The notes below the pieces were generated by a model, which made no database searches, was not told the origin of the DNA, and saw nothing but the letters and a program-made list of their open reading frames with translations. Made by a program: the position numbers and the translations under genes. Shown here one piece after another: positions 2,914 through 38,350 of a stretch of DNA of 64,000 nucleotides (position 1 is the stretch's first letter; each line of letters starts with the position of its first letter). This DNA comes from Octopus vulgaris (taxonomy: Eukaryota): assembly GCA_951406725.2 (NCBI GenBank), contig OX597830.1, forward strand, positions 31,310,001-31,374,000, written 5' to 3'.

Positions 2914-3894
2914 ACACGTATATATGCATACTTATGTGTGTTTTATATATATCTGTGTATGTATAAAACGCGTGCTGCACTAATCTCTTCTAACATTACA
3001 ACAATTAGTTTCGCTTTTATCTGTCTCTTCAGGAAACAGGCGGAAAGATTACTTGAATCCAGTTCACGTAGAGCAAACAAATACACACACACACACACAC
3101 ACAGACATACGCACACATACAGACACACACACACACACATACACACACACATACACACACACACTATATCTATTTCTTCTCTCTGTCTCTCTCGCATACA
3201 CAAATAGTAAATTTGTGTCAATGGATCTCCATTTGTTTCACCGACAAGCCTAATTATTTGGTCAACTGAATTATCTAATCAATGCAGATAATTCAGTTTA
3301 ATGTGGCTGAGTGTTCTGTAGACATATGCAATCGTAACTTAATCTTCAGGCATAATATCTATTCCACAGAGTGTATCATTCGTAGCCCTTTGCCTATTAC
3401 AGGTACACTCCATCCGACATGCTTTGTCAACGATTTCAGTCAACCACACAACCCACAGATCCCTATTGATCGAACTTTTTTTTTTCTTTGTGTCCCACCC
3501 ATCCCGCCTCGAAAAGAAAAAAAACTCTACATTGTATTTCGTCCATTTTTATTCTGTGTTTAGCCCTGTGTGGCCACAATAAAAAGTTATTTCAGTCAAC
3601 AATTTCAGTCTTTCACAATTTCTTTCACAAATCATGGGCCAACACTTATGCAACATTCCATACGGCGGGATCTTTGTGATTACCGAGCGAACACTTGGTC
3701 ATGCCAGCATCTATGCCCAACACACTCCTAAACACACGCAAAACAGAGAGCAAAAATTATCTTCTCTCGGAGAAACTTCTTGGTAATCTATCAAGTACGA
3801 GAAAGACAATTCTGCAATGTTTTGCTGAACGATTTGCACTGAATATTCGGTTATAGAAATCAAATTTTTGTGTTGTACATTAGTTCACTTCCTC

Positions 3895-35340: not shown

Positions 35341-35354
35341 ACATATATATATAT

Positions 35355-35502
35355 AGCCGTATTTCGTCTGTCGTTACGTTGTGAGTTCAAATTCCGCCGA
35401 GGTCGACTTTGCCTTTCATCCCTCCGGATGTAATCGACTTAATCCCTTTGTCTGTCCTTGTTTGTCCCCTCTGTGTTTAGCCCCTTGTGGGCAATAAAGA
35501 AA
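35355..35502 (+). mobile_element. SINE family A, 5'-truncated with internal deletion
   Basis: GTATTTCGTCTGTCGTTACG...GAGTTCAAATTCCGCCGAGG...TTTAGCCCCTTGTGGGCAATAAAGAAAT. Confidence 0.85.
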
Positions 35503-35533
35503 TATATATATACATATATACATACACACACAC

Positions 35534-35571
<38 letters not shown>

Positions 35572-35573
<2 letters not shown>

Positions 35574-36011
35574 CATTATTGGTGAATTGAAGAAATGGAG
35601 CTGAACGCAGATTGAACAGAAATCGTTTTATTTCATTCTACACGTGTTTCGAAAGGCACAAATTACCAAAATCCGATGCAATAATAGGACCATATTGTGT
35701 CTTTCTCTTCAGGAAGAAAATAGAAGAGAAAGACACAATATGGTCCCATTATTCCATCGGATTTTGGTAATTTGTGCCTTTCGAAACACGTGTAGAATGA
35801 AATAAAACGATTTCTGTTCAATCTGCGTTCAGCTCCATTTCTTCAATTCACCAATAATGTTCTAATTTCAATTATCCGCACCAACGCACGGTTGCAACAC
35901 CATATGGTTGTACCTCCAACCGTGCTGTTTTACTGCTGTGATTTTTGCTACTAAGGTATCGGTTAAACTTTTGATTAATCTACTACAAGATTATTCATCT
36001 TTCTATTTCAC

Positions 36012-36013
<2 letters not shown>
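35572..36013. mobile_element. PLE-like non-coding element with a 139-bp inverted duplication, flanked by (TA)n
   Basis: Arms 35572-35710 and 35723-35861 are reverse complements with 2 mismatches and a 12-nt spacer. The right arm continues ~150 bp to a (TA)n tract. Confidence 0.85.
35629..35722 (-). ncRNA. Type I hammerhead ribozyme, apparently intact
   Basis: Stem I UAUUUUCUUC/GAAUGAAAUA (9 of 10 pairs), CUGAAGA, stem II GAAAGaCACAA/UUGUGcCUUUC, GAAA, palindromic stem III ACACGUGU, GUA triplet (predicted cut between 35639 and 35638). Confidence 0.8.
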
Positions 36014-36061
<48 letters not shown>

Positions 36062-36192
36062 TATACATACGTAATAACAAACAGCTTGCGAGAGGAAAGA
36101 AGGAGAGAGAGAGAGAGAGTGAAAGAGAAAGAGAGAAGGAGAGAGAGAGAGAGAAAAAGTAGACAAAGTGGCCGATAAGAAATCTACAAATC

Positions 36193-38261: not shown

Positions 38262-38350
38262 CGTTAGCACGCCGGGCGGAATGAGTAGCCGTATTTCGTC
38301 TGCCGTTACGTTTTGAGTTCAAATTCCGCCAAGGTTGACTTTGCTTTTCA
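38262..38350 (+). mobile_element. SINE family A, 5' part only
   Basis: GGCGGCGAGCTGGCGGAAACGTTAGCACG..., ending abruptly at TTTGCTTTTCA. Confidence 0.85.

Follow-up and report, generated by a model that had tools for sequence, protein, structure and literature searches.

The window analysed here is a stretch of 64,000 nucleotides from one contig of the Octopus vulgaris genome, in which a palindromic insert of 442 bp lies between (TA)n-rich flanks. The inverted repeat at this position is as the first-pass annotation had described it, with arms at 35572-35710 and 35723-35861 that are identical at 137 of 139 positions (the 2 mismatches of 139 are at 35679 and 35686) and are separated by a spacer of 12 nt. 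The same source had noted that the plus-strand arm begins at GAAGA, without CU, and extends beyond the mirrored part to (TA)n; this also agrees with our analysis, the extension amounting to 152 bp. The locus consists of the following features, in which positions of the parent element (described below) are those of its repeat unit.

35502-35571, no strand: (TA)n-rich target microsatellite, left flank
35572-35722, minus strand: inverted arm, which spans parent positions 3473 to 3323, stops at an internal fixed site ("site 2") and includes the 12-nt spacer
35629-35722, minus strand: the parent's terminal-repeat hammerhead motif of type I, complete, with a long stem II and a self-complementary stem III
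35679-35686, minus strand: two substitutions private to the inverted arm, in distal stem II (found in 1 of 527 genome matches)
35722-35724, no strand: head-to-head junction, where the G at 35723 can be assigned to either arm (1-nt microhomology)
35723-36013, plus strand: forward arm, parent positions 3335-3625, 100% identical to the parent and ending at the distal fixed site ("site 1")
35862-36013, plus strand: one-sided "tail", the ~150 nt between the two fixed sites
36014-36069, no strand: AATA (the parent's next four bases) passing into (TA)n, right flank

Read along the window, the insert is parent sequence from 3473 to 3323 in inverted orientation followed by 3335 to 3625 in forward orientation, with one G in common, and the remaining sequence of the parent is absent elsewhere in the window. 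The forward arm's hammerhead is cut off within the core. We considered whether the two substitutions in the left arm mark a second source copy, and we reject this idea because both are unique (1 of 527 matches). The tail has a predicted hairpin at 35875-35945, which is weak (z -1.9); a self-complementary 10-mer lies within the hairpin between the two start sites. A similar motif, namely TTCAC followed by an ATAAT-like patch, precedes both start sites (window positions 35850-35870 and 36000-36020) and may represent a priming signal that was duplicated. On either side of the insertion lie fragments of a SINE-like repeat of very high copy number (35354-35490 and 38286-38350), and sequencing contigs suggest that about 30 internal bases are missing from the left one. 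The contigs resolve neither the window locus nor its private variants.

The origin from a Penelope-like element (PLE) suggested by the first-pass annotation is borne out by identification of the parent, for which intact open reading frames and tandem copies were found. The parent is a tandem unit of 3,625 bp with an ORF of 895 amino acids. Units of this length in tandem occur at loci L031-L033, with partial tandems at L107, L130, and L135; the segment L031-L032 (G000:C1:119514151-119526689) holds three and a half head-to-tail units that are ~99% identical and is a candidate source locus. The right arm has 1,471 candidate matches in the 2.8-Gb genome, and the 40 that were scored are all 100% identical. 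Searches with the parent protein gave no significant match in Pfam, PDB, or other sequence searches; the set of its homologues comprises 107 proteins of ~28-42% identity, one of them from Argonauta hians. The AlphaFold model of the protein has a mean pLDDT of 75.9. Its reverse transcriptase (RT) matches telomerase first (Foldseek, VIA; Z 15.8, rmsd 2.9, 264 aligned residues), a score tied with those of a DGR RT (15.6) and yeast telomerase (15.0), and residues 774-877 match the GIY-YIG catalytic domain of I-TevI (Z 10.3, rmsd 2.5, 89 of 92 aligned).

Elements of the Hydra clade of PLEs, including Hydra-1_Obim, were described by Craig et al. 2021 (PMC8557442), and we compare the parent with the clade as it appears in excerpts of that paper. 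Both have a C-terminal GIY-YIG domain, DKT, CxxC and CxH around E/N, no CCHH motif, (TA)n targets, and a hammerhead with a canonical core and a short self-complementary stem III. In the alignment the parent reads SDKT, with DKG changed to DKT, and its C855/C858 and C883-x-H, which surround a conserved E and N, align with those of homologues. The parent differs from the clade in its length (3.6 kb, compared to generally less than 3 kb), in RWL instead of RWK (sister families have RWK, RWR, or RWA), in the loss of the CxCX5C linker, and in long low-complexity inserts in the ORF. Of the linker a single Cys remains in most copies and CxC in 3 of 45 motif reads (some loci overlap), while 4 of 4 sister-family ORFs checked, from three sister lineages, have the complete motif. 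The region between the core boxes of the hammerhead spans ~55 nt in the parent, whereas the six Hydra rows in File S2 of PMC8557442 have a stem and loop of 12-23 nt. In view of the missing linker and of a unit longer than 3 kb, the parent would, on its sequence, be called a Hydra-like PLE and is not filed as a member of the Hydra clade.

The (TA)n ends persist in this family without the CxCX5C linker (L033:5171-7858, residues ~740-765), which has been proposed to direct (TA)n targeting; the family may be mobilised in trans by sister families that retain the motif. The low-complexity inserts are long, N/S-rich, and modelled with pLDDT below 50 (L033:5171-7858, residues 486-559 and 632-765; also in the ORFs of L139 and L156), and they resemble asparagine-rich inserts described in rotifer Penelope elements.

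Insertions of the family have two fixed ends. On the forward strand, pattern counts over the genome give 515 junctions with TA for site 1 and 201 for site 2, and therefore roughly 1,000 and 400 ends in all; reverse-strand junction counts are inflated by a variable gap. Our insertion sample consists of all 65 site-1 junctions listed in the first 151 Mb of contig C1, which correspond to 64 insertions (one insertion has two junctions), chosen only by the site-1 end and all from one contig. An inverted arm is present in 50 of these site-1-chosen insertions. The outer ends of 46 inverted arms lie in view at 3456-3476, one more is at 3476 as seen in the overlapping locus L039, and none is at 3625; among the other inverted arms, one has its outer end out of view and two, in older copies (L123 and L125, 88-90% identity), end elsewhere. 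The pattern of one end at each site is found in 47 of the 50 inverted insertions, and two distal ends in none. One insertion scored as non-inverted (L089) has a site-2 arm just beyond the edge of its locus (L046). When 20 loci were instead chosen by site 2, five of them picked for showing no partner earlier, 13 were paired with site 1, 7 were solo, and none was paired with site 2. The two fixed sites are ~150 nt apart, ~45 and ~200 nt upstream of the ATG.

In a sister family (~38% identical in the RT), all 30 hammerhead-anchored ends fall into two clusters 121 nt apart (13 and 17 ends), and each of the nine opposite-strand pairs combines one end of each cluster. The sequence (TA)4 is found within 20 nt of 29 of 30 site-1 ends, which were not selected on their flank, and of 44 of 47 site-2 ends, compared to 10.8% of the 20-mers in the window. 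Parent bases that match the TA tract, up to four, are often retained (16 of 30 at site 1). The palindromic layout is also common: a palindrome of 50 nt or more is present in 31 of the 64 insertions, and in 29 of these it takes in the whole hammerhead, so the window locus is ordinary for its family, with the same layout in 29 of 64 sampled insertions. Individual loci vary; L111 is a complex insertion with a repeated inverted junction, L030 is a young copy beside an older remnant of 78% identity, and L051 has a duplicated 5' end that carries an extra G twice.

The inner ends and the sequences of the arms bear on the template. A G precedes all seven arms truncated at 3239, where the parent has C, although two of these seven G residues could also be read as part of the inverted arm, and several other arms, which end at 3240, show no consistent additional base. 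Extra G residues derived from the cap are known from LINE and LTR elements, and we read the G at 3239 as a possible copy of the cap at an initiator-like start. The hammerhead cut site is read through by 80 of the 86 arms that reach the hammerhead and only 2 end at 3403-3410, which indicates that the templates were mostly uncut. The alternative of hammerhead-cleaved or circular RNA as the main template is unsupported, with 2 of 86 arms ending at 3403-3410. Sequencing contigs cover the parent and cross the cut site; they come from runs that are only guessed to be RNA. Ends also cluster at 3389-3403 and 3530-3550; these clusters, noticed post hoc, fit palindromic words or the foot of a hairpin.

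The two arms of an insertion agree at 80 of 81 recurrent subfamily variants (9,361 overlapping bases) and share 14 rare variants. The inner ends were compared in 47 of the 50 inverted insertions (L111, L123, and L125 were excluded). They lie within 7 nt of each other in 6 of 47, compared to 1.1 expected (permutation p 0.0003), or in 5 of 44 if pairs at the start site are left out (p 0.001), and within 40 nt in 13 of 47, compared to 4.4 expected. The offset of 13 nt in the window falls within the near-coincident class. The site-2 arm leads in 32 of 47 insertions, which is no more than permutation gives (p 0.24) and counts against a simple ordered model; in 13 of 47 it is the site-1 arm that extends further. 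Junction microhomology allowed no call in 15 of 48 cases, and many junctions have inserted or mismatched bases.

The full type I hammerhead core reported on the minus strand is present, and the predicted cut falls between 35639 and 35638, as reported. It is composed of CUGAAGA (C3 at 35712, in the spacer), a stem II region of 55 nt, GAA, ACACGUGU, and A17 at 35639, with 9 of the 10 pairs of stem I formed, and it occupies positions 3323-3416 in the terminal repeat of the parent. Against the Rfam model Hammerhead_1 it scores 14.8 bits (gathering 34, E 0.47), the long stem II being handled as an insertion. A scan of 6 kb around the locus against Rfam lists no hammerhead, only microsatellite or hairpin matches to microRNA models, all below gathering. 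The active fold of the isolated 94-mer has an energy of -10.9 kcal/mol, compared to -13.4 kcal/mol for the predicted minimum, and an ensemble probability of ~1e-4, and the 94-mer folds no better than shuffles (z 0.54). Stem III of a monomer has only 2 bp, while two copies are computed to pair through it at -12.3 kcal/mol, in keeping with hammerheads of the dimer type described by Cervera and De la Pena 2014. In excerpts of that study (PMC4209133), metazoan PLE hammerheads are of type I, with weak monomers and a palindromic helix III that points to activity as a dimer, and opposite-strand hammerhead pairs 100-700 bp apart are already noted; the helix II region of the parent is far longer than the 6-8 bp given there.

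The sister families have hammerheads of the same design (a long stem II, an 8-nt self-complementary stem III, and a GUA site) with different sequence, located 280-340 nt before the ATG. The core elements CUGANGA, GAAA, and UH are invariant in an alignment of 7 sequences drawn from two families and sublineages of these. In stems I and III 96% of 77 cells are paired (31-50% in slid controls) and 5 of 11 pairs have two-sided change, a test of modest weight in that the 7 sequences are related and the structure was drawn from those same sequences. The first-pass annotation had called the ribozyme apparently intact, a word that holds in the sense of the complete core sequence and the covariation between families, rather than in the sense of folding energy or activity. 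The four recurrent variants inside the motif are all in distal stem II, and this confinement, together with the design and covariation of the sister families, suggests that the motif is likely kept for a function in the parent. The hammerhead is the parent's own terminal-repeat ribozyme and likely works as a dimer through the self-complementary stem III. At the window locus the motif is likely to be inert according to folding predictions, in which a read-through RNA from either strand would bury it in a 139-bp duplex.

The 442-bp insert, 5'-truncated and with its arms head to head, derives from a young Hydra-like Penelope retroelement. Taken together, the fixed and paired ends, the variants shared by the arms, the coupled stops, the extra G, and the read-through of the cut site make it probable that it was produced by two target-primed starts of reverse transcription, at two fixed sites that lie ~150 nt from each other on a single RNA, capped and uncut. 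In this model the GIY-YIG domain would cut a (TA)n tract on both strands, and the DNA 3' ends would each prime at one of the two sites, where the RNA has a short AU-rich patch, perhaps with the help of an RT dimer. Both cDNAs would then be extended toward the 5' end of the RNA, the trailing one displacing the leading one, and their ends might be joined by way of microhomology spanning a few bases, with fill-in. Gene conversion, or the use of two RNAs transcribed from the same source locus, could also account for the concordance of the arms. In twin priming of LINE-1, two primers on one RNA give rise to an inverted 5' segment joined by microhomology, with a variable second start and arms that do not overlap; in the insertions studied here the second start is fixed and the arms overlap by at least 50 nt in 31 of 64.

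Of the other explanations we considered, the palindrome could result from fold-back or self-priming, where the second arm arises by copying of a single cDNA, or of an antisense template, that has folded back; self-priming on an antisense template was proposed for rotifer Penelope palindromes (PMC3846280, from excerpts). The excess of near-symmetric junctions and the variants common to both arms, including the 14 rare ones, speak in its favor. There is also a hybrid form, in which the site-2 cDNA folds back, copies itself, and anneals to the site-1 cDNA, and the loop in the window belongs to the site-2 arm, as this form requires. However, pure fold-back fails for 32 of 47 insertions and for the window, where each arm has sequence missing from the other, and many pairs have no overlap at all. 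Moreover, the extra G at 3239 indicates a sense, capped template, and the two substitutions in the window occur in one arm only, although they may postdate the insertion. We therefore consider an origin by folding back, hybrid form included, to be unlikely.

A functional or selected role of the palindrome at the window locus, as a dsRNA or ribozyme module that serves as a substrate for editing or siRNA production, appears quite improbable. Any read-through RNA is predicted to form the 139-bp hairpin (-263 kcal/mol), and contigs from runs guessed to be RNA contain the family's terminal repeat running into TA, the sequence to be expected if some insertions are read through. On the other hand, the stub lacks the inferred start site (3239) and is promoterless, the same layout occurs in 29 of 64 insertions of the family, the insert is too young for conservation to be read, and no host exon is evident by eye among the 251 stop-to-stop frames. 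Least of all do we expect an assembly artefact from a fold-back chimeric read, even though no contig among those listed bridges the junction in the window and consensus errors could explain the two private substitutions, which lie close to the tip of the hairpin, because such a read mirrors everything past the turn, while here the mirror stops at the family-wide site 2, both outer ends are at family-wide fixed sites, the flanks differ, and each arm has sequence that the other lacks (the spacer, for example, is parent sequence that only one arm contains). A non-LTR retrozyme was also considered and rejected; the insert in the window is a single inverted stub of a coding element and there are no tandem short non-coding units at the locus, which is what a retrozyme preprint (10.64898/2026.07.22.740005), in the excerpts used here, is concerned with.

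The insert shares several properties with the inverted copies of EN+ PLEs, as given in excerpts of two papers (PMC8557442, Fig. 2 legend; PMC3846280), namely a truncated copy in head-to-head orientation, an extension at one end, and microhomology at the 5' junction. It differs from those accounts in the length of the tail, which is ~150 nt here (121 nt in the sister family) and 30-40 nt in the published elements, and in that the rule of one end from each site is counted here, over 56 inverted insertions. In the literature searched, mostly openly accessible papers other than the original descriptions of the tail, we found no tail longer than 100 nt and no counted rule of this kind. A biochemical parallel is the Poseidon element PAc of Anolis carolinensis (Frangieh et al. 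2024, PMC11167929), for which excerpts describe RT initiation at two internal sites, cleavage and extension of both strands, a predicted dimer, a substrate that is mainly uncut RNA, and the adjacency of the two starts, which accounts for a tail of 30-40 nt. The parent shares with PAc the two internal initiation sites, AT-rich targets, and an uncut RNA template. The PAc sites are adjacent, inside the ORF, and said to be non-homologous to the target, whereas those of the parent lie upstream of the ATG and often keep bases that match TA. Double priming on one RNA thus extends the account of PMC11167929 and disagrees with the antisense self-priming idea of PMC3846280, as far as the excerpts of both go.

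More generally, we lean towards a model in which priming in PLEs is obligately two-ended, such that a separate dedicated site would serve each side of the cut (TA)n target, both on the same capped RNA that the ribozyme has left uncut. Two priming sites, 120-150 nt apart in these families, would then account for the inverted repeat and the "tail", and (TA)n targeting would persist without the zinc-finger linker proposed to cause it. The route by which PLEs form tandem and inverted insertions is named as open in the excerpts of PMC8557442 and is partly addressed in vitro in those of PMC11167929. The insert is a real, young insertion of a known kind; what is new is the long tail, the rule of one end from each site in two families, and the genomic signs of a single capped, uncut template. 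A study of Octopus vulgaris (PMC13282606) reports 336 recently active Penelope-like insertions, in passages that mention neither hammerheads nor the Hydra clade.

The window locus itself is of little importance. The parent family is young and abundant, has intact 895-aa ORFs, and has start sites far enough apart for unambiguous scoring, and it is a good system for testing the two-site model and the role of the hammerhead. Hundreds of such near-perfect hairpins are also a possible source of dsRNA in this genome. Among loci L137-L166 there are two or more additional Hydra-like families, whose ORFs are open over ~840-1,000 amino acids; one of these families has 919 exact matches to a 30-nt hammerhead anchor. 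A motif scan found no hammerhead in the 14 loci of a third family (the L137 group), whose terminal repeat may fall outside those loci. A further hammerhead of the same design, with a long stem II, a self-complementary stem III, an AUA site, and unrelated sequence, is located on the minus strand of L144 at about position 270.
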